64,000 nucleotides of DNA from an uncultured Trueperaceae bacterium (GTDB lineage: Bacteria > Deinococcota > Deinococci > Deinococcales > Trueperaceae): NCBI GenBank assembly GCA_963799485.1, contig CAWCXJ010000008.1, positions 224,001 through 288,000 on the forward strand. The letters run 5' to 3'. Within the stretch, counting starts at the first letter, position 1. Each line of letters begins with the position of its first letter. This document shows, in pieces, positions 371-11,087 of this stretch. The notes beneath the pieces were generated by a model. That model saw only the letters and a list, made by a program, of their open reading frames with translations. It was not told where the DNA came from and did not search any database. A program made the position numbers and the translations under genes.

Positions 371-3300
371 CTAGTCCCCTGGGGAAACCGCTACCTGCAC
401 AGAAGGCGCGGAAGCTGTCCTGCCACGGGCTGCCAGCTTGAAGCCGCCGAAGATAAGCAGAATCGCCAGCATTTCGCCTAAACTCTGCGCGCCGGAAAAG
501 CCGAAACGGTTGAGCGTACCAACCGCGCCCATCGCTATACCGCCCCCGGCAATGAGGATCGTGCCCCACATGCGGTTAGCCGACTCGGGCCTACCAAACA
601 GACGCCAGGCAGAGACGAGCGCGCCTAGTACAAGCATCGCTGCGCCGTAACTGTTTAGAAAGATGGTGTGGAACCGCGGCGTCGCTGCCAGCGCCGTACC
701 CAGGTCGGGAAACGCGCGCCCACTTAGCTGATCGGCGGAGCCGAGTTTGGCAAGCTCGAGGGGTGCGGCGAGGGCTAGCGCCAACACGGCCCCGGCGTAG
801 AAGACGAGCAGCCAGGTCAGCGCCTGCGCCCACCTTCTGGGCAGCAGCAGCCAAGCTGTGCCGTGACCCAGAAAAGCTGCGGCAAACAGTGCGCCCGCTG
901 CGTACCAGCTCCGGTAGCTTAGCGGCGTCCACGAACCACGCAGGGCGTGCAGCAGACCGAGGCTCGAGGCCAGCGCAAACATGCTGATACCGAGCGCCCA
1001 CCAGAACCGGTGAGGTGCCGGTTTTCGGGCGTAATCACCCCAGACGAGCAGCGCCAAGAACACGGCGACAAGCGCCGCCAGCGCACTCCAGGAAGGGCTT
1101 TCACCGACCACGACGACACGCGGCGCAGCTGCTCCGGTCGCCTTAAACGTAGCAGGCGGACGCGCAGGCGCAGGGGGCGGCGCTGCGAGTGGAGCCAGTT
1201 TCGGATTTAGCGTGAAGTAGTACTCGGTGGTGCCACCGTACATGCTCGAGGTCTGGTCGGCTACGAGCAGATAACGACCGGGCGACAGCGCTTCGGTAGG
1301 TTTAAGCGTCAGGCGCTCGAGCTTGCCCGCACGTGTTCGCGCGACCTCTTGCAGCGGCGTCTCGTGCGCGTCGCTCAAAGCGACCAGGCGGTAGTCCGTA
1401 GCGTCGCCCGTGCGGCGGTCCTGCACGACGAGCGTGTCTACGGCGGCCAGCGCGAGCGAGTCGGGGGGAAAGTCGGCGGGCGCTTCGTACCAGGGGTAGG
1501 GCCGCACGAAGGCGTCGTTGGAGGCGAAAAAGAGGCCCCGCGACGCTTCGGGCACTGCGCGTAGCGGCGTGTACTGCGCCCGCGCGCCGACGCTGCCGCC
1601 CAAGAGCGGTACCAGCAGCGTCGAGAGCAGCGCCAGCCCCAGCACGCTCGCGCCCAGCGCGACCGCCGTTTTGCGGCGGCGTACCCGTGGCGGCAAGCGC
1701 CGCTGCAGACGACCCCCACCCGGACGATGGCGGCGGCGCAACACCAGCGCGAGCGCGAGGCTCGAGAGCAGCGCCGTTCCCGGAAAATAGTACATGTAGA
1801 CGCTCAGCCCGGCAGCGGTGAGAAAGGTGTTGCCGAAGGGACTAAAGAGCATCGGCAACAGTGCCCAGGCTACGCCGGGGCCGACCGCAGCCAAGGGCCA
1901 GCCCACCACCGGTACCCCGGCCAGAAACCAGCCGAGGCCCGGAAAACCTGCAAAGGCTCCAACAAACTCGGCACCGACCGGCAGCGCCGGGGGCAAACGG
2001 CGTAGTGCCGGCGGCAGCGGCCCGGTAACTCGTGCAGGGTAGGCCGCCACTGCGCTGCGGCTCTGAGCGCGAAAAGACCGTGTGTAACGCCACGTCAGCT
2101 GAAAGCACCGGAGCGCCCCAACCAAAAAAAGGCTAAAGCCGACAAACCCGAGCGCCAAGCCGATGGGTGCTACCGCCGTAAGCAGCTGCGGGTCAACCGG
2201 GTGCAGGTGGCTTTTTTCAGTCATCTCGGCGTTGACCGCGCGCCCACCCGCAGCCACGAGCAGCGAGGCTTGAATCCCGATGTAGGCCAGCCCCGCATAG
2301 ATAAAGAGCGCACCCCGCTCGAGCCACAACACCGCCCCGGTAAGTTTGTCTAAAGGCAGCTTGGGGATGGTGGCGAGCGCCAGCAGCACCGCCAGCGGTG
2401 TCAAGCCGCCCAGGATGTTGAGCTGCGCGTGTGCGCTCGGCAACACCTCGCCCAGCGCACCGGCCCGCATGTACCAGAGCTTGACGGCGTCGATAGCCTG
2501 AAAAGGGCCTTGCAGCGTGCCTACAAAAAGCGCCAAACCGCTCAGATAAACAGCCGTCCTGAGCGTCCCCGCCGCGCGCCGGGCCGACTGCACCATCGTG
2601 AGGATAAACAGCCACACCCCCGCCGTCATCACCAGACCGCCCACTAAGATGGGGCCGCTGTGAAGGAGTCCCAAACGCGCCACGACGGCCTCGGTTACGA
2701 GGCCGTCGTCGACTATCCGGTAACCCTCGTAAAGCCCGAGCAGCAGCAGCGAGGCGTAAAAGAGCAGGCCACCCGGTAACAGCACCCAGAAGATGAGTCC
2801 GGCGCGCCGCCGCGACACCGCCGCCAGGCCCAGACGCGGCCCCAGATAGATAAAAAACGCGATAGCGAGCATCAGCGTTCCGAGCACCAGATTGATATGC
2901 GCGTGGCTCACGGGGTCGATCATGCGCCCGGCGATCCCGGCAGCCTGAATCCAGGCCTCGTTCTTGGGCAAAACCTGCAACACCCCTTGCACGGTGCCGA
3001 CCGTCAGCGCTACCGTACCGACCACGAGGTATTTGAGCAGGTGGGCGTGCGGTTTTTTTTCGTCGACCCGCCGTGAAAACCAAACCGTCAGTACGGCGTT
3101 TAAGGTGTAGGTCCAGTAGCCGAGTCCCAGCATCATGCCGGTCACGCGCAGAGGGATACTGTGCCACTTGCCGACCAGCGCCTTGGCGTCGGCGTAAGTC
3201 AACCCGTTTTGCACCATGTTGCCCTCGACGACGCCTAGAATGAGCCAGGCCAGATAAAAGCCCGATACGCCGAGCGCCGTAAACCAGAACGACGCGGTTG

Positions 3301-3700
3301 CCATCCCCGGACTGTAGAGCGGGCGCTTGGTGATGCGGGGCAGCACGTACCAGGTGAGGCCGGTCAGCAAAACCGTACCCACCCCCACCACGAAGATATG
3401 AGTGTTGGACAGGTCTTTAGCCATCTCGCCGCCGTGGTCGGCGGTCATAAGCCACTGAAACACGCCCGGCAGGTTCTTGAGAACGCCGTGTAGCGCCCCG
3501 ACCACGAGCGCGCCCGCGCCGAAAAGCGCGTACAGCGGCAAAAAGCGGTCGTAGGCGGTGATTTGAGCGCCACTAAAGCGCTGCGGCGCGCTACGCTGCG
3601 CGTTTGCCGCGGGCACCAGCCAGGCCACCAGCCCGGTCACGGCCAGCGCCGCGAAGAGGATGCCGATGACGTCGAGGTTGTTTAAGCTGGCGACCCACAT
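371..3700 (-). CDS. 1109-aa multidomain membrane protein: three CcoN-like 4-TM units, further TM segments, Ig-like soluble domain, C-terminal multi-TM domain
   Basis: Repeats containing NTH, HAH and HAQ; YVLPRITKRPLYS and QGxxQ motifs shared with the neighbouring CcoN; no helix-VII HH pair. Confidence 0.85.
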   Translation of the reverse strand: MWVASLNNLDVIGILFAALAVTGLVAWLVPAANAQRSAPQRFSGAQITAYDRFLPLYALFGAGALVVGALHGVLKNLPGVFQWLMTADHGGEMAKDLSNTHIFVVGVGTVLLTGLTWYVLPRITKRPLYSPGMATASFWFTALGVSGFYLAWLILGVVEGNMVQNGLTYADAKALVGKWHSIPLRVTGMMLGLGYWTYTLNAVLTVWFSRRVDEKKPHAHLLKYLVVGTVALTVGTVQGVLQVLPKNEAWIQAAGIAGRMIDPVSHAHINLVLGTLMLAIAFFIYLGPRLGLAAVSRRRAGLIFWVLLPGGLLFYASLLLLGLYEGYRIVDDGLVTEAVVARLGLLHSGPILVGGLVMTAGVWLFILTMVQSARRAAGTLRTAVYLSGLALFVGTLQGPFQAIDAVKLWYMRAGALGEVLPSAHAQLNILGGLTPLAVLLALATIPKLPLDKLTGAVLWLERGALFIYAGLAYIGIQASLLVAAGGRAVNAEMTEKSHLHPVDPQLLTAVAPIGLALGFVGFSLFLVGALRCFQLTWRYTRSFRAQSRSAVAAYPARVTGPLPPALRRLPPALPVGAEFVGAFAGFPGLGWFLAGVPVVGWPLAAVGPGVAWALLPMLFSPFGNTFLTAAGLSVYMYYFPGTALLSSLALALVLRRRHRPGGGRLQRRLPPRVRRRKTAVALGASVLGLALLSTLLVPLLGGSVGARAQYTPLRAVPEASRGLFFASNDAFVRPYPWYEAPADFPPDSLALAAVDTLVVQDRRTGDATDYRLVALSDAHETPLQEVARTRAGKLERLTLKPTEALSPGRYLLVADQTSSMYGGTTEYYFTLNPKLAPLAAPPPAPARPPATFKATGAAAPRVVVVGESPSWSALAALVAVFLALLVWGDYARKPAPHRFWWALGISMFALASSLGLLHALRGSWTPLSYRSWYAAGALFAAAFLGHGTAWLLLPRRWAQALTWLLVFYAGAVLALALAAPLELAKLGSADQLSGRAFPDLGTALAATPRFHTIFLNSYGAAMLVLGALVSAWRLFGRPESANRMWGTILIAGGGIAMGAVGTLNRFGFSGAQSLGEMLAILLIFGGFKLAARGRTASAPSVQVAVSPGD

Positions 3701-4910: not shown

Positions 4911-5216
4911 CTAACCCAGCTCGAGCAGGTACTCGACCTGCAGGTCACGCGGCGGCGGCTGCATCTCCTCGAGCACGTCCTGGGGCGTTTCGCCGCACCC
5001 GATCCAGGCCTCGAGCTGCTCCTCGAGCGCCCAGCGCACGATGGCGAGAATCGCAACTTCGTCCGACTCCGCCCGCCCCAACAGCTCCATGCTTACAAAG
5101 CCAGGGAGGCTCTGCAGCACCCCCTTGAGCGCGATAAGCGCGAAGTAAGCCTCGTCCCAGACCTCGCGGCTCAGGCGCGCCCGGGTGAGTTGCGTGTAGT
5201 GGGTCGCGGCGGGCAC
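4911..5216 (-). CDS. Antibiotic-biosynthesis-monooxygenase (ABM/IsdG-like fold) protein
   Basis: LQSLPGFVSMELL...IVRWALEEQLEAW pattern typical of ABM domains. Confidence 0.7.
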   Translation of the reverse strand: MPAATHYTQLTRARLSREVWDEAYFALIALKGVLQSLPGFVSMELLGRAESDEVAILAIVRWALEEQLEAWIGCGETPQDVLEEMQPPPRDLQVEYLLELG

Positions 5217-5217
5217 G

Positions 5218-5580
5218 CTAGTAGACCTGCCCCTGCAAAATCTGCTGGACGGTCAAAAAGAGCGTCCACAAAAAGATGCCTACCCACACCCACTTCATCA
5301 CGCCTACCGGGCCGACGTGCTCTTGAAGGTAGCCGTTGTATTCCTCTTGCGGGTAGAGGTCGTTGCGCCAGCGCGTGCGGCCCTGCCAGCGTGTCAGTAG
5401 CCACAAACCGAGCGCCGTCACCACCAGCCAGCCGAGGTAAACCAGGATGAGGCGGAGGTTGTTTTGCAAGCTCAGCCACTCCCAGGTAACGCCGCCGTTG
5501 GGCGCGAGGTAGTAGTTGCTGTAGAGGTAGTCGTAGTAGGCTTTGAAGGCTTCGGGGGAACTGCCCGAGGGAACGTTCAT
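5218..5580 (-). CDS. 120-aa membrane protein resembling the cbb3 subunit III (CcoP/FixP) N-terminal region, without heme motifs
   Basis: EEYNGYLQEHVGPVG..WVW resembles the FixP-N 'YDGIxE..P..WW' motif; no CxxCH; ATG at 5580 overlaps the upstream stop, with SD GGAGG. Confidence 0.6.
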   Translation of the reverse strand: MNVPSGSSPEAFKAYYDYLYSNYYLAPNGGVTWEWLSLQNNLRLILVYLGWLVVTALGLWLLTRWQGRTRWRNDLYPQEEYNGYLQEHVGPVGVMKWVWVGIFLWTLFLTVQQILQGQVY

Positions 5581-5924
5581 TTCAAATCCTCCCGCGCCCA
5601 GTCGGGCACCTTTTCCCAGGCCCAGGCCGGGGTTTCGTAGTCGGGTTCGGGCGTGAGCCAGAAGGTCTTGACCTCGCCCTCCATGTCGCTGAAGTAGCCG
5701 CGCCGCCAGGCTATCAAGGAGATGAGCAGCGCGGGCAGCATGAAGCCGAAAAAGGCGGTCATCAGCATCCAGTCGGTCATCACAAAGTCCGCAACTGCGT
5801 CCTTGGGCTGGTCGTGAGCGGCGGCCATCCCGCTGCCGAGGGCAAACACCCACAGCATCAGCCGGGGCGCACGCCAAGGCGCGAGTGAAGCCTTTGGTAA
5901 CACCGACTTTAGGGTTGGAACCAC
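5577..5924 (-). CDS. CcoS/FixS-like cbb3 maturation membrane peptide with N-terminal extension (start uncertain)
   Basis: TM helix followed by WRRGYFSDMEG, compare CcoS W..SGQFDDLEG. Confidence 0.6.
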   Translation of the reverse strand: MVPTLKSVLPKASLAPWRAPRLMLWVFALGSGMAAAHDQPKDAVADFVMTDWMLMTAFFGFMLPALLISLIAWRRGYFSDMEGEVKTFWLTPEPDYETPAWAWEKVPDWAREDLK

Positions 5925-7381
5925 TGCAATCCCTCCGTATTCATGACCTGTTCGCGGCTCAAGACGTTGTCGCCGCGCGCCTGCGACTCGTTAAAGGCCT
6001 GCTCGAGCAGGCTGAAATAGGCACTCTGGATAAGGCCGGTGAGGCGCGCCAGGGTCAGCGGCAGCTTGCCGCCGACGAAGATCACGTCGTTCGGGTCCAT
6101 CCCTGGTGCCACCCAGTGCGCCGCCGCGTCGAAAGGGGTGGCGGTGGCGCTGTGCTCGGCCCCGGTTTCGCGCTCCGCCAGGGGATGCGCGGCGATGTAC
6201 TCGAGCATCGCCGCCGGGGGCTGCCAGTCGAGGTACATGTCCGGCGTCGGCAGGGTCTGCGGTTCCGCGAGGCTGCCGCCCGGAATGGTCTTCAAGAACA
6301 GGACCAGGCGCCAGATGTCCTCGACCGACAGGCGGGTGCCGAAGTTTTCCATGGCCGAGCCCTTACCCGCGGTCAAAAGACGGTGGTACATCTGTCCCGG
6401 CGAGGCGAAGAACCCCATTTGACCACTGACGGCGCTCGTGTCGGTAAAGTTGAAGGGCTTGGGTGCCAGAAAGGTCGCCGCGGGTCCGTTGCCGTTGCCG
6501 TTGACGCCGTGACAGCCCACGCAGCGCTCCTGAAAGATGACTTTGCCGCGCAGCAGGTTCTGCCGGGTCAGCGGCAGCGGGTTGTCGGTGAGCCAGTAGC
6601 TGCGGGCCATGCTGTTCATCATCCACACCGCCATCCAGGGGACGCCCTCCGGCGAGGTGTCCATGGCCGAGCCCGCAGGGCGGTAACTGCCGTCCGCCTG
6701 AAGCTGCTGAACCAGGTCGGGGAAAAAGGTGGCGGGGTCTTGGCCCATGCCGGTAATCAGCATCATCTTCTTGCCGACGTCCATCGCTGCGGCGCGGAGC
6801 AAGCCTTCCTTGCCCCCCTGAAAGCGGTTGTACTCGATGGCGTCACTCGTGCGGCTGTCGCTCCAGAACGAAAAGCGCGGCATCACCGACTTGGGCGTGG
6901 TGTAGCGCGGGTCGAAGTAGTGCGCCCGCTGCCAGTCGTCGGGGTGCTGCCCGCCTTCGTTGGCGAGGTCGGGGCCGGTGCGAATCGAGCCGAACAGGTT
7001 GGGCGTCCAGCCCGCGCCCGGCCAGTCGCCCGCTTCGGACGCCCGCGTGTAGACGAAGTACTGGCCCACCGCGACGTCCTGGGGCCTGGTGAAGCCCGAG
7101 TGGCACAAGTAGCAGCCCTGTTGCTGAAAGTTTTGCTTACCGCGCCAGGCCGCGTCCGAGAGCGGCGTCGCGTTGGGGCTCGGCGACGGCTCGAAGGTGG
7201 TCAGCGGCAGCACCACCACGAAGCCGACCACCAGCGCAAACACCAGCATCGCGCCCAGCGACACGACCAGCGGCTCCATGCGCATGATTTGCTTGGGCGG
7301 GTCGCGCCAGTTTTCGGGCGTGCTGGGCAGACCCGAGCGCATGCCCTGGTTGTCGTCGCTCTCAGGAGGCACCGAGTTCAC
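5909..7381 (-). CDS. ccoO: cbb3-type cytochrome c oxidase subunit II fused to a second cytochrome c domain
   Basis: CYLCHS, GSIRTGPDLA, HYFDPR...SVMPRF (CcoO); second CVGCH with SAM Met ligand. Confidence 0.9.
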   Translation of the reverse strand: MNSVPPESDDNQGMRSGLPSTPENWRDPPKQIMRMEPLVVSLGAMLVFALVVGFVVVLPLTTFEPSPSPNATPLSDAAWRGKQNFQQQGCYLCHSGFTRPQDVAVGQYFVYTRASEAGDWPGAGWTPNLFGSIRTGPDLANEGGQHPDDWQRAHYFDPRYTTPKSVMPRFSFWSDSRTSDAIEYNRFQGGKEGLLRAAAMDVGKKMMLITGMGQDPATFFPDLVQQLQADGSYRPAGSAMDTSPEGVPWMAVWMMNSMARSYWLTDNPLPLTRQNLLRGKVIFQERCVGCHGVNGNGNGPAATFLAPKPFNFTDTSAVSGQMGFFASPGQMYHRLLTAGKGSAMENFGTRLSVEDIWRLVLFLKTIPGGSLAEPQTLPTPDMYLDWQPPAAMLEYIAAHPLAERETGAEHSATATPFDAAAHWVAPGMDPNDVIFVGGKLPLTLARLTGLIQSAYFSLLEQAFNESQARGDNVLSREQVMNTEGLQWFQP

Positions 7382-8939
7382 CCCCCGCCGCGGCGTCGGG
7401 GGCGGGACCCCGACCCTGCGCCAGCACCCGCTCGAACTCCTCGCGCACGATTTTCCGGGTGTCTTTGCGAATGGTCTGCACGATGTTGTAGGCCTGCACG
7501 ATGCCTGAAAGCACGATCATCGCGCCGAAGGCGGCCCGCGCCATGTACCAGGGGCGGATCATGGTGAGCACGTTGACCTCGGGCACTCCCTGCAGCCACG
7601 ACTGCCCCTGGATAAAGCCGGCAATGGTCAGCGACCAGAAAAAGCCGGTAAAGCCTATCAAAATAAGCCAGTAGGTCCATTCGGAGAGAGTGCGGCTGTA
7701 GATGGGCTTGTCGTAGATGTGCGCCACCGCGTACTCGATAAAGCCGATGCCTAAAAAGGTAAACGCGCCCAGCAAGGCCAGGTGCGCGTGCGCCACCACG
7801 AAGTTGGTGAAGTGCGTGAAGCGGTTGAACTGCTGCACTGCCTGGAACGAGCCTTGGATGTTGACGAGCAGGTAAAAAACGAGCGCGGTGAGGCTAAAGC
7901 GCAGCGGCATGTTGGTAAAAAACTTGCCCCACGAGCCGCGCATGGTCATGATGATGTCGGTTACAAAGGCGAACACGGGCACGAGGAGCATGATGGACGA
8001 AATCGTCGCGTAGCTCTTGAGCCAGCCCGGAATCGGCGCTTGCAAGAGGTGATGGTGGCCCACGCCGGTGTAGAAAAAGGCTATACCCCAGAACGAGATA
8101 AACGAGAGCGTCTGCGAGTAGAGCGGCGTGTTGGTGAGCCTGGGAATCAAATAGTAAAGGATCGCCAAGAGCATTGGCGTGAGCCACAACCCGAAGAGGT
8201 TGTGGTTGGCCCACCAGTTGAGCATCCCGTCGGCGATCCAGGTCGGTGCTGCGCCCGAACCGCCCGAGCCGGTCAGCATGTTGGTCCAGCCATTACCGCT
8301 GTAGCCCTGCGGACGCCACATCACGTTGCCGATAAAAAAGTCTGCGGCGAGCCACAGCGGCGCGGCCACGATCCACCAGACCGTGACGTAGAGCGGCCTC
8401 ACCTTGCGGGTGAGCAGCGTCATCAGCACGTTGTAGATGTTGAGCAGCCAGGCGATGAGCAGCAGCACGTCTATCCACCAGACGAACTCGGCGTATTCGC
8501 GGCCCTGGTTCCAGGCGAGCCCGGCGATAGTGACGATGGCCGCGACGAACATGATGTTCCAGAGCACCGCCGAGACCTTGGCGAGCCGGGGGCTGTAGAG
8601 CCCGCGCCCCAACAGGCGCGGCAGCATATAGAAGGCCGCGCCCCAGTACATCGAGGAGAGCCAGGCGAAAATCACTCCGTTGACGTGCAACATGCGGATG
8701 CGCGGAAACGTCAAAAACGAGATGCCGTTGAACGTTTCCGGGGCAATGAGCTGGGTGGCGATGATGAGCCCGAACAAGTCCACCACCGTGAGCCAAAAAA
8801 TACTTGTGCCGAGCCACCACATCACCGCGCGGTCGCCTTTGGCAAAAGCCCCCTCTTTAGTAAAGCGTCCTGCCCCCAGTGCACCCCCGATCTCGTCGCC
8901 GAAGCGGTTTGATCTAGGTGTCCCTATTGCTTGTTCCAT
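7362..8939 (-). CDS. ccoN: cbb3-type (C-family) heme-copper oxidase subunit I, divergent
   Basis: RMLHVNG, REYAEF, WWANHN, FFYTGVGHHHL (helix-VII Tyr plus CuB His pair), VAHAHL. Confidence 0.93.
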   Translation of the reverse strand: MEQAIGTPRSNRFGDEIGGALGAGRFTKEGAFAKGDRAVMWWLGTSIFWLTVVDLFGLIIATQLIAPETFNGISFLTFPRIRMLHVNGVIFAWLSSMYWGAAFYMLPRLLGRGLYSPRLAKVSAVLWNIMFVAAIVTIAGLAWNQGREYAEFVWWIDVLLLIAWLLNIYNVLMTLLTRKVRPLYVTVWWIVAAPLWLAADFFIGNVMWRPQGYSGNGWTNMLTGSGGSGAAPTWIADGMLNWWANHNLFGLWLTPMLLAILYYLIPRLTNTPLYSQTLSFISFWGIAFFYTGVGHHHLLQAPIPGWLKSYATISSIMLLVPVFAFVTDIIMTMRGSWGKFFTNMPLRFSLTALVFYLLVNIQGSFQAVQQFNRFTHFTNFVVAHAHLALLGAFTFLGIGFIEYAVAHIYDKPIYSRTLSEWTYWLILIGFTGFFWSLTIAGFIQGQSWLQGVPEVNVLTMIRPWYMARAAFGAMIVLSGIVQAYNIVQTIRKDTRKIVREEFERVLAQGRGPAPDAAAGGELGAS

Positions 8940-9158: not shown

Positions 9159-9252
9159 AGGCGCTAAGACTTTTGGGTGCTAGGACTTTTAGGGCTAAGG
9201 CGTGAGGCTAGGCGGCTGCTCGAGGTTCGTGGCCTCGGTCAAGGAGGGATAT

Positions 9253-9918
9253 TTGACTATCTTGGTAGTAGACGACGACCCGTCGATCCGCGAAGTGCTG
9301 CGCGTCTTTCTCGAGCGCGAAGGCTTCGAGGTCGTCGAGGCCGCAGACGGCGCGAGCGCCCTGGCGAGCGCACCGGGGGTAGACCTGGTTGTGCTGGACC
9401 TGATGCTCCCCGAACTCAGCGGTTGGGAGGTGGCTAAGGTACTGCTGCGAGACCGTCCAGAACTGCGTATCGTCATTCTCACAGCGCGAAATACTGAAAA
9501 CGAGCGGGTCTACGGTCTGGAACTGGGAGCAGACGATTACGTGGTAAAACCGTTTAGTGCGCGTGAGGTCGTGGCGCGTATCAAATCGCTGCTGCGCCGC
9601 GCGGGGCTTAGCGATCAGCTGCGCTACGGTGAGCTGTCGATTCAGCTCGGGACCCGCGACGTCTACTTGAGGGGAACCAAATTGCTGCTTTCCAAGCTCG
9701 AGTTCGAGCTGCTCGTCACCCTCGCCCAGCACCCCGGCTTGGCCTGGAGCCGCACCCGCTTGCTCGAGCGCGTCTGGGGTGGCGACTTTCCCGGCAACGA
9801 ACGCGTAGTAGATTCGCGCATCGCTATTTTACGGCGAAAACTCGACGACGCTTCGGAGCAGCCGCGCTATATCGAGACCGTCCACGGGGTCGGCTACCGC
9901 TTTATCGAGTCGTCATGA
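9253..9918 (+). CDS. OmpR/PhoB-family response regulator
   Basis: ILVVDDD, LDLMLP, GADDYVVKPF, winged-helix ETVHGVGY; TTG start after AAGGAGG. Confidence 0.95.
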   Translation: MTILVVDDDPSIREVLRVFLEREGFEVVEAADGASALASAPGVDLVVLDLMLPELSGWEVAKVLLRDRPELRIVILTARNTENERVYGLELGADDYVVKPFSAREVVARIKSLLRRAGLSDQLRYGELSIQLGTRDVYLRGTKLLLSKLEFELLVTLAQHPGLAWSRTRLLERVWGGDFPGNERVVDSRIAILRRKLDDASEQPRYIETVHGVGYRFIESS

Positions 9919-11087
9919 AGATTTTTGGTCGCTTATTCGTAAGTCACCTGCTGACCGCTGTTGTTGCCAGCGCCGGCATCGTCGTCGGGGTTGGCCTGCT
10001 GTCGCCGACCTTTTACGGTCAACATCTGGACCGTCTTGCCAGCACAGGGATCAGTGCCCAGGCGTACCGTGCGGTTCTTGCCGAGGGGCACCAGCGCGTC
10101 ATGCTACTGGCGTTGGCAATTTCACTGCCCATTGCCCTTGTGTTGGCTATGACCGTCTCATACCGCGAGGCGCGGCGCGTGGCTACGGCTGCCGAAAAGC
10201 TTGAAGTGGGGAGTCGCGCCCTGGCGGGCGGTCACTACACGGCGCGCCTCGAGGTCGCCGGAAACGATGAACTGACCGCTATCGCCCAGCACTTTAACGA
10301 GCTGGCTGAAGGTTTGGCGGCAACTGAAGCGGAGCGCTCGGCGCTGATCGGCATCGTCGCGCATGAACTGCATACGCCTCTTTCAGCGCTGCAGGGCTAC
10401 ACCGAGGCTTTTGCCGAAAAGCTGATGCCCTTAGACGCAGTGGCGACCGCGATGAACCGCGAGCTCGAGGCGATGCGGCGCGTGACCAACGATCTGCTGC
10501 TGGTTTCGCGTATCGAGGCGCGCGGCGTCGAGATCAGGCGTACACCCTGCTCCGCAGCTGGACTGTTAGCAGACGCTTACGACCGCTTCCAACCCATCTT
10601 TGAAGAACGGGGGCTCGCCCTAAAACTCCAGGAAACGAGCCTTTTGCCCTCTGTTTATGCAGATTACGACCGGGTTTTGCAGGTTCTTTCGAACCTGCTT
10701 GCGAACGCGCTCAGGTACACGCCGACCGGTGGCCTGGTGGTTGTCGGGGCCGGGGTTCAGGAGGGAGCGGTCAGGTTTTTTGTAAGTGATGATGGCCCCG
10801 GTATCGCGAGCGCTCACCAGCAGCGCATCTTCGAACGTTTCTACAGGATTGACCCGGCGCGTAGCCACCGTGACGGTGGCAGTGGTATCGGGCTTACCGT
10901 CGCAAAGGGTTTGGTCGAGGCGATGGGCGGCCGGATCGGGCTCGAGAGTGAAGAGGGTCGTGGCAGCAGGTTTTACTTTACCTGCCCGGCCTGCAGCAGT
11001 GACGACCAATGTTTTCCCGAGCTGGTCGCTACGGCAAGAAACTACAAAGCGCAGGCTGCAAAACGTATAAGCCACACTCGCATTTAG
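9915..11087 (+). CDS. HAMP-domain sensor histidine kinase (BaeS-like)
   Basis: AHELHTPL H-box, NLLANALRY N-box, DDGPGI, GSGIGL. Confidence 0.95.
   Translation: MKIFGRLFVSHLLTAVVASAGIVVGVGLLSPTFYGQHLDRLASTGISAQAYRAVLAEGHQRVMLLALAISLPIALVLAMTVSYREARRVATAAEKLEVGSRALAGGHYTARLEVAGNDELTAIAQHFNELAEGLAATEAERSALIGIVAHELHTPLSALQGYTEAFAEKLMPLDAVATAMNRELEAMRRVTNDLLLVSRIEARGVEIRRTPCSAAGLLADAYDRFQPIFEERGLALKLQETSLLPSVYADYDRVLQVLSNLLANALRYTPTGGLVVVGAGVQEGAVRFFVSDDGPGIASAHQQRIFERFYRIDPARSHRDGGSGIGLTVAKGLVEAMGGRIGLESEEGRGSRFYFTCPACSSDDQCFPELVATARNYKAQAAKRISHTRI

Follow-up and report, generated by a model that had tools for sequence, protein, structure and literature searches.

A predicted copper-free paralogue of CcoN, built from three recognisable repeats and encoded beside ccoNO in an uncultured Trueperaceae bacterium

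Background

What is the role of a protein that resembles the catalytic subunit of an oxidase, is encoded next to a genuine oxidase of the same type, and carries a different set of putative metal-binding residues? This question is raised by a gene in a 64,000-nucleotide stretch of DNA from an uncultured Trueperaceae bacterium (GenBank assembly GCA_963799485.1, contig CAWCXJ010000008.1, positions 224,001 to 288,000); we call this whole stretch the window. The gene encodes a protein of 1109 amino acids (aa), designated P0001, and lies downstream of the genes for CcoN (subunit I, P0004) and CcoO of a cbb3-type cytochrome c oxidase.

The pseudo-threefold symmetry of oxidase subunit I is known from structures. 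A first-pass annotation of the window, made from the letters and a list of open reading frames (ORFs), had read the N-terminal half of P0001 as an oxidase fold with its units in a changed order, without copper and with two bis-His haems. Here we examined this reading by analyses of sequences, predicted structures and gene neighbourhoods. We propose, with a confidence slightly short of even, that the N-terminal half of P0001 is a copper-free paralogue of CcoN and a two-haem redox subunit tethered to the oxidase.

Fold and internal repeats

The first-pass annotation had described three units of about 160 aa, each with four helices and resembling CcoN. This description held. The units were recovered as repeats by hhalign and BLASTP, the similarity to CcoN was found by BLASTP, and the match to the Pfam family COX1 was above its cut-off. 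The motifs that the annotation listed are all present at the residues it gave; on the first helices and in the loop, the sequence reads H71-G-V-L-K75, Q238-G-V-L-Q242, Q397-G-P-F-Q401 and Y118-VLPRITKRPLYS130. Residues 51-535 of P0001 correspond to positions 2095-3550 of the window, and the fold proper extends from about residue 45 to residue 548.

Residues 1-560 were modelled with AlphaFold2 from an alignment of 61 sequences, and the model had a predicted local distance difference test (pLDDT) of 92.2 and a predicted template modelling score (pTM) of 0.91. It contained one extra N-terminal helix (TM0), followed by 12 long helices (h1 to h12). With VIA-align, residues 45-548 of the model were superposed on residues 6-467 of a cbb3 CcoN (3mk7_G) with a Z score of 30.4 and a root-mean-square deviation of 3.4 Å over 421 residues. 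In the structural ranking by Foldseek and VIA-align, cbb3 CcoN came first and NorB next, followed by the A- and B-family subunits I. At the level of this model, the 12-helix fold of a haem-copper-oxidase subunit I, which the first-pass annotation had expected, is confirmed for the oxidase-like domain. The loops of P0001 contain 17 lysine and arginine residues on the cytoplasmic side versus 7 on the periplasmic side, which fits the canonical orientation by the positive-inside rule. TM0 showed no similarity to any oxidase unit.

Sequence comparisons pointed to the same relatives. By BLASTP, residues 73-180 of P0001 matched residues 357-465 of the neighbouring CcoN (E 5e-8), and residues 109-326 matched residues 254-445 collinearly (E 1e-7), with GVVEGNMVQ opposite GVGHHHLLQ and H266-A-H268 on H384-A-H386. 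The whole protein scored 43.3 bits against Pfam COX1 (PF00115; gathering cut-off, 34.8), and the match covered only positions 270-423 of the profile, in two stretches. When the units were scanned singly, units 1 and 2 matched the last third of this profile (E 3.6e-8 and 2.7e-8, respectively), and unit 3 had no match in Pfam. The NCBIfam ccoN equivalog TIGR00780 did not match P0001; the sole match was PRK14485, with 17.4 bits against a cut-off of 1080. When the full-length protein was compared with PDB sequences, the only match was a chance one (E 0.5).

The three units are strikingly similar to one another. In hhalign comparisons, unit 1 matched unit 2 with E 3.7e-24 (32% identity over 150 columns), unit 2 matched unit 3 with E 2.5e-21, and unit 1 matched unit 3 with E 1.1e-12. 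For the neighbouring CcoN family, the E values between its own units were no better than 1.6e-5 to 1.1e-4. Plain BLASTP was sufficient to align unit 1 with unit 2 (33% over 148 aa, E 5e-12, 47.4 bits; best of 100 shuffles, 18.1 bits) and unit 2 with unit 3 (30% over 118 aa, E 3e-9, 39.7 bits; best shuffle, 21.2 bits). These sequence alignments show an oxidase-like fold assembled from three repeats that are 20-33% identical among themselves.

Ligand register and conservation

The putative ligands were placed by ungapped profile alignments through the second helix of each unit. N99, H266 and H424 share position 1 of the motif with CcoN H384, and H101, H268 and Q426 share position 3 with CcoN H386. 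For the other two CcoN histidines of this kind, counting back from the LPR/IPR anchor in P0004 gave position 1 for H85 and position 3 for H246. One profile alignment placed H85 onto H101 by means of a 2-residue gap, and this ambiguity was settled by the LPR anchor. As a register, we agree with the first-pass annotation that xxH / HxH / HxQ corresponds to the canonical pattern rotated by one repeat (order 2-3-1). H266-A-H268 sits on the sixth helix of the bundle, where the canonical HxH is on the tenth, and H424 matches the register of the low-spin haem His of helix II, but on h10.

Conservation was studied in 120 relatives from a 90%-cluster search and in a second set of 148 relatives of at least 600 aa. 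The four histidines on which a two-haem reading depends (H101, H266, H268 and H424) were each present in 120/120 relatives, as was N99; Q426 was found in 119/120 and H71 in 117/120. Tyrosines at equivalent places of the three units were similarly conserved (Y149, 120/120; Y315, 120/120; Y468, 118/120). All four histidines were kept in 140 of the 148 longer relatives, and 125 of those 140 had the full H71/K75/N99/Q426 set.

The first helix of a unit varies with its position-1 residue. QGxxQ is kept exactly in both units with a position-1 His (Q238 and Q242, 120/120; Q397, 118; Q401, 119); unit 1 has Asn at position 1 and carries H71...K75 in place of the motif. Of 36 neighbouring CcoNs, 25 have QGxxE here, and we take the last position of this motif to be that of the conserved Glu that hydrogen-bonds the haem b3 ligand. 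The haem b3 His of cbb3 oxidases is described as hydrogen-bonded to a conserved Glu (PMC8398457).

The copper site is a different matter. Three CuB histidines are expected, one from helix VI and an HH pair from helix VII, and P0001 has only H101, the helix-VI equivalent. The absence of the helix-VII pair had been claimed before and was borne out, as no HH dipeptide occurs anywhere in P0001. Residues 159-161, opposite the HHH of CcoN, are variable among the 120 relatives (M57/E42/I16 and others), and HH occurs within region 145-174 in 2/120 relatives only. Since two of the three CuB histidines are missing, a canonical haem-copper centre is impossible. In the neighbouring CcoNs, H85, H246, Y290, H296, H297, H384 and H386 were each found in 36/36 sequences.

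Predicted haem sites

In oxidase structures, each pore is shared between position 3 of one central helix and position 1 of the central helix that follows. By this rule, H268 and H424 would be the counterpart of the low-spin haem site, H266 would be the counterpart of the proximal ligand of the high-spin haem, with H101 in the place of the helix-VI CuB His, and N99 and Q426 would mark a pore without haem. The pairing of H268 with H424 in one haem site is what we infer from the pseudo-symmetry.

In the proposed two-haem subunit, two b-type haems would be bound as in canonical oxidases, with the whole arrangement shifted by one repeat. A low-spin haem would have two axial histidines, H268 from h6 and H424 from h10. 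A second haem would be ligated proximally by H266, also from h6, and its distal side would face H101 from h2 and Y149 from h3, which would provide either a sixth ligand or a distal pair. The position-1 histidines of the two sites would be hydrogen-bonded to Q242 and Q401. Such a protein would sit in the oxidase complex, tethered by its C-terminal modules, and would serve in electron transfer or storage, possibly as an entry point for electrons from quinol or cytochrome c, with no reduction of oxygen.

The same residues might instead form a haem-only catalytic or sensing site, an explanation that we consider quite unlikely. The second haem, held by H266, would be five-coordinate, with H101 and Y149 on its distal side, and would bind or turn over NO, O2 or H2O2 with electrons from the CcoO-cytochrome c subunit. 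H101 and Y149, both invariant in the 120 relatives, lie opposite H246 and Y290 of CcoN, the helix-VI His next to CuB and the tyrosine that is cross-linked to it in the active site of the C family; H71, K75, N99 and Q426 in the pore without haem could be a proton path; and the conserved, divergent two-component system described below suggests regulated use. Y149 indeed aligns with CcoN Y290, yet an equivalent Tyr is present in all three repeats, with Y315 and Y468 likewise conserved, so the Tyr is a feature of the repeat and not a signature of an active site. Under the pseudo-symmetry, H101 also corresponds to the axial ligand H268, so that a bis-His haem is the more likely arrangement, and there is no output domain for a sensor.

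It is highly improbable that the domain binds no cofactor at all and is a structural relic, a pseudo-oxidase kept purely as a membrane scaffold. One observation in favour is that P0190, a distant relative of 546 aa outside the set of 148, has Gln at positions 101, 266 and 268. The invariance of the four histidines, together with their QGxxQ partners, and their retention in all but eight of the 148 longer relatives argue against this.

The third pore is more than an empty space, a feature that goes beyond the first-pass annotation, as does the fusion to accessory modules. H71, K75, D96, N99 and Q426 are conserved polar residues of this pore, which is predicted to lack haem, and of the periplasmic end of unit 1. 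Position 92 is His in 117/120 relatives and Glu (E92) in P0001. Such a set of residues might conduct protons, bind quinol or hold a metal. Among the 140 relatives with all four histidines, His was found at position 99 in three and at position 426 in one; in the former three, position 75 is occupied by Q, Q or V.

In the case of these rare relatives (P0132, P0133, P0141 and P0137), HxH is present in unit 1 (H99) or unit 3 (H426), and QGxxQ is restored in unit 1 of P0132. A third haem may be present in such proteins.

Origin of the three units

The first-pass annotation had explained the order 2-3-1 as a circular permutation or a re-triplication. The rotation of the register stands, and of the two histories re-triplication fits better; a simple permutation is not favoured, as unit 3 gave no score against CcoN unit 1, and all three units are closest to CcoN unit 3. 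The E values for CcoN unit 3 in hhalign were 1.9e-10, 3.4e-7 and 7.9e-6 for units 1, 2 and 3, respectively. The units of P0001 scored 146 bits among themselves, versus at most 68 bits to any CcoN unit. A maximum-likelihood tree of 60 unit sequences recovered all six unit types. One branch of it (86/82, not starred) separates the three P0001 units from those of CcoN, and the P0001 units have much the shorter branches. Because all of the units match CcoN unit 3 best and cluster in the tree, a separate triplication or a homogenisation of the repeats seems to be the simplest history, rather than a cut-and-paste permutation of CcoN.

A true circular permutation would have started from a 12-helix, CcoN-like ancestor and proceeded by tandem duplication and trimming, and each P0001 unit would then be orthologous to one CcoN unit (unit 1 to helices V-VIII, unit 2 to IX-XII, unit 3 to I-IV). 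We regard this as improbable. It is consistent with the register, which is exactly the canonical pattern rotated; with the collinear BLASTP match of residues 109-326 to CcoN 254-445; with the match of unit 1 to CcoN unit 2 (E 1.1e-8); and with approximately unbiased (AU) tests, which did not reject the grouping of unit 2 with CcoN unit 3 (p 0.33) or of unit 1 with CcoN unit 2 (p 0.36). The pairing that the permutation needs, unit 3 with CcoN unit 1, had an hhalign probability of 0.2-0.4%, and the preference of all units for CcoN unit 3, the mutual unit scores and the best tree all stand against it. Moreover, a search of TM0 and of residues 546-705 and 865-1100 for the remnant of a trimmed unit gave nothing (probability no higher than 12.7%). 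The unit tree and the AU tests do not discriminate firmly between these histories, and long-branch effects are possible.

A bolder explanation, for which we see a small chance, is that the family is an independent or surviving triplication of an ancestral four-helix HxH haem-binding unit. It would be a near-symmetric, copper-free 'pre-oxidase' with haems between adjacent repeats, and not a degraded oxidase. If this is true, the step from a symmetric multi-haem bundle to an asymmetric haem-copper centre could be studied in a living protein.

Single units of a similar kind may exist. In the ESM Atlas, clusters of proteins of about 180 aa annotated with DUF2871 and/or COX1 resemble single oxidase repeat units, and these could, if real, be stand-alone relatives of the repeat. 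The Pfam family DUF2871 did not match the P0001 units. It was found in 0/151 genomes of the phylum and in 0/14 control genomes, and the comparison is therefore uninformative. Judging by title, nothing on oxidases was found among the papers listed for DUF2871.

C-terminal accessory modules

The C-terminal half of P0001 was modelled with a pLDDT of 82.8 as membrane helices with the motif GFPGxGW, then a transmembrane (TM) helix that leads into a beta-sandwich, and finally a bundle of seven helices. Pfam searches of this half gave nothing at E up to 10, and Foldseek gave nothing at E <=0.001. In the ESM Atlas, it fell within a cluster of its own family alone (0.76). The wide VIA search with the seven-helix bundle returned generic matches resembling 7TM receptors (Z 12-15), within the expectation for helical bundles. 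In the case of the beta-sandwich (about residues 722-831), weak matches to CopC (6NFQ and 6NFS) were obtained (Foldseek E 0.02-0.03, TMt 0.52-0.61, 20-22% identity over about 88 columns). Among its invariant and 90%-conserved columns (alignment A2), M260 (numbering of the C-terminal half) is the sole candidate for a copper-ligand residue, and there is no His or Cys; the whole of P0001 contains a single Cys.

The module with GFPGxGW is conserved in long and short forms of the protein. Short forms (<720 aa) account for 13/120 proteins, and the oxidase-like domain is retained in them. For L006, L011 and L041 at least, similarity to the C-terminal half ends inside the module next to this domain. 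In a genome of the same family (G289), two of the modules are separate genes: an ORF encoding 132 aa (L081, 4978-5376) matches residues 551-631 of P0001, and a gene encoding 148 aa matches residues 714-832. Since these two modules are separate in G289 and G284, another genome of this family, P0001 is a fusion protein in which an oxidase-like domain is joined to accessory modules of the same oxidase type.

Gene neighbourhood and distribution

The features of the locus are collected in Table 1.

Table 1. Features of P0001 and the neighbouring genes (window positions)
Feature	Position	Strand	Evidence
P0001 gene, 1109 aa: TM0, 12-helix oxidase-fold domain (predicted) and C-terminal accessory modules	371..3700	-	ORF list, translation; Pfam COX1
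C-terminal seven-helix bundle, residues ~869-1095	416..1096	-	Model; no informative match
TM helix and periplasmic beta-sandwich, residues ~706-865; weak CopC-like fold	1106..1585	-	Model, Foldseek
'GFPGxGW' membrane module, residues ~551-660	1721..2050	-	Invariant columns in alignment A2
Repeat unit 3, residues 375-545, h9-h12; Q397/Q401, H424-A-Q426, Y468	2066..2578	-	hhalign; no Pfam match alone
H424-A-Q426; H424 = position 1, register of CcoN helix-II haem b histidine H85	2423..2431	-	Profile alignment
Repeat unit 2, residues 215-374, h5-h8; Q238/Q242, H266-A-H268, Y315	2579..3058	-	hhalign
H266-A-H268, aligned with CcoN helix-X H384-A-H386 (ligands of two haems)	2897..2905	-	BLASTP and profile alignments
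Repeat unit 1, residues 45-214, h1-h4; H71/K75, N99-T-H101, Y149, E159-G-N161	3059..3568	-	hhalign, conservation
E159-G-N161, facing CcoN H295-H-H297; two CuB ligands missing	3218..3226	-	BLASTP alignment
N99-T-H101; H101 in register of CcoN helix-VI CuB histidine H246	3398..3406	-	Ungapped alignments
TM0, extra N-terminal helix, residues 8-28, predicted N-out/C-in	3617..3679	-	Model helices, positive-inside count
Formate/nitrite-transporter gene, between the small ORFs and the P0001 gene	3835..4650	-	Pfam E 1.8e-49
Small one-TM protein, ~60 aa	4718..4903	-	29/72 loci (tblastn)
Soluble protein, 101 aa; weak ABM-like match (E 0.039), below cut-off	4911..5216	-	41/72 loci (tblastn)
Small two-TM protein, ~120 aa from MNVPSG	5218..5580	-	Translation; homologue in 28/72 loci (tblastn)
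ccoO fused to an extra cytochrome c domain	5909..7381	-	FixO E 3.2e-23, Cytochrom_C E 2.8e-14
ccoN (P0004), 525 aa, bona fide C-family subunit I	7362..8939	-	Pfam COX1 E 1.3e-75; full ligand set
OmpR-type response regulator and HAMP histidine kinase, divergent from ccoN	9202..11087	+	Pfam

Linkage to ccoNO was scored in loci with at least 4300 nucleotides of upstream sequence, with a ccoN at least 50% identical. In 59/59 such loci, ccoN and the gene for the ccoO-cytochrome c fusion (ccoO-c) lie upstream on the same strand, so the gene is an obligate member of this operon; the link to ccoNO that the first-pass annotation had proposed to check in homologues is there. Homologous pairs of a response regulator and a histidine kinase adjoin the operon in 28 and 32 of the 43 long loci. 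With regard to the ABM-like ORF, some ABM proteins bind or degrade haem. The formate/nitrite transporter is present in 0/80 related loci; it is therefore a lineage-specific insertion, and we dropped it as a functional clue.

Two other genes were observed downstream. A gene with a CcmE domain (a haem chaperone of cytochrome c maturation) directly follows the P0001 homologue in 13 of the 43 long loci (for example, L067 13429-15416), and it is followed in turn by a gene for a protein of about 518 aa with no annotation, which was seen in 18 loci.

The family is sizeable, yet distinct from canonical CcoN. Among 1.84 billion cluster representatives, the search found 187 at E <=0.001 and 47 at <=1e-30, and a presumed canonical CcoN (535 aa, matched stretch 392-456) first appeared at about E 3e-8. 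A relative is encoded in 157/173 candidate stretches of species-representative genomes. The 80 loci that were kept belong to Actinomycetota (56), Chloroflexota (20), Deinococcota, Thermomicrobiota and Pseudomonadota (one each), and one was not assigned. In the sampled phylum, the protein was found in 2/301 genomes. The source genome (3.66 Mb, 99.99% complete) has two A-type, one B-type and one C-type subunit I gene, in addition to P0001.

In the other Deinococcota genome with the protein (G054:C6:50963-52436), the matches to ccoN fall in two overlapping frames covering residues 24-314 and 287-514, a pattern that points to a sequencing error or a frameshift.

A related ccoN (55-56% identity) is present in G284 and G289, both from the family of the source bacterium. 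In G289, the operon (L081) contains ccoO-c, the three small ORFs and two module genes (G289:C12 4978-5908; in G284, C1:308-1314), without an oxidase-like domain, and the contig ends soon after.

Subunit or assembly factor

The contents of the source genome bring an assembly role into consideration. P0001 would then be a maturation factor, a chaperone or scaffold through which the genuine CcoN receives haem b or copper; in these lineages it would stand in for the proteobacterial CcoG/H/I/S set, and it would be absent from the mature enzyme. We consider this unlikely. FixG_C, FixS and FixH were not detected by Pfam in the whole source genome, almost complete as it is, nor did FixG_C, FixH or FixS match residues 561-1109 of P0001 at E up to 10. 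In proteobacteria, ccoGHIS are located downstream of ccoNOQP, and the P0001 gene occupies the same place in its operon. The CopC-like likeness of the beta-sandwich (Foldseek E 0.02, TMt about 0.6), the CcmE-domain gene that follows in some of the long loci, and the absence of the oxidase-like domain from G284 and G289 are also consistent with this role. On the other side, apart from M260 as a candidate, neither the beta-sandwich nor the 7TM bundle has conserved Cys, Met or His copper ligands, and there is one Cys overall. Four invariant histidines of the axial type in a complete 12-helix fold resemble stable rather than transient cofactor sites, and no known chaperone uses this fold.

These considerations lead us to retain, as a tentative choice, the two-haem subunit tethered to the oxidase. 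Several points weigh against it. No electron donor or quinol site was identified for P0001. H71 and H92, which are conserved in most relatives, could mark an unrecognised metal site. The operon of G284 and G289 lacks the oxidase-like domain, so the domain is dispensable for at least some oxidases of this type. Finally, the missing FixG_C, FixH and FixS fit an assembly role as well as a subunit role. A complex prediction with the oxidase-like domain (45-548) and CcoN (35-495) gave a score of 0.00 and a mark of 0.32, to which we give no weight either way.

Significance

The first-pass annotation recognised no described family with this architecture, and there is indeed no dedicated family model in Pfam or NCBIfam. 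Database names for members are 'hypothetical', 'cbb3-type cytochrome c oxidase subunit I' and 'haem/copper-type oxidase subunit 1'. P0001 is not the oxidase that the databases call it, and naming such proteins subunit I double-counts oxidases in genome and metagenome surveys. We found no description of the family in literature searches for CuB-ligand loss, permutation, triplication and the cbb3 oxidases of these lineages, and no literature that combines 'heme-copper oxidase' with 'circular permutation'. The passages on these topics in a survey of oxidase-superfamily diversity do not mention the family (PMC11214002).

The plainness of the repeats (33% identity) gives direct sequence evidence for how the fold is constructed, and the family provides a natural setting in which to examine that fold without copper. 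In Actinomycetota and Chloroflexota, cbb3-type oxidases seem to be accompanied by conserved extra components, one of them a candidate two-haem subunit. As these extra components occur, and FixG_C, FixH and FixS were not detected in the source genome, the composition, electron input and assembly of such oxidases may differ from the proteobacterial model.

Comparison with known systems

The nearest known structures are those of CcoN (3MK7, 8SMR and 6XKW; Z 29.7-30.4). P0001 shares with them the predicted 12-helix pseudo-threefold fold, the HxH helix, the QGxxQ/E helix, the LPRxxxRPLYS loop and the FY tyrosine. It differs from CcoN in that two of the three CuB histidines are missing, the predicted haem-ligand helices are h6, h10 and h2 instead of X, II and VI, and the protein is extended by TM0 at one end and by fused modules of about 560 aa at the other. 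Furthermore, the repeat units are 20-33% identical in P0001, whereas those of CcoN are barely detectable as relatives of one another.

NorB of the nitric oxide reductases cNOR and qNOR (3O0R, 4XYD and 6L1X) has the same fold as that predicted for P0001 (Z 27-29 for cNOR and 22.8-23.0 for qNOR) and is likewise a copper-free member of the same superfamily branch. According to the passages of the diversity survey on this enzyme, its FeB site consists of three His and a Glu (PMC11214002). In contrast, P0001 keeps one of the three His positions and has no HH, so that the FeB ligand set is incomplete.

In comparison with CopC, the sandwich of P0001 is located between TM segments and has neither a free N-terminal His nor conserved His copper ligands.

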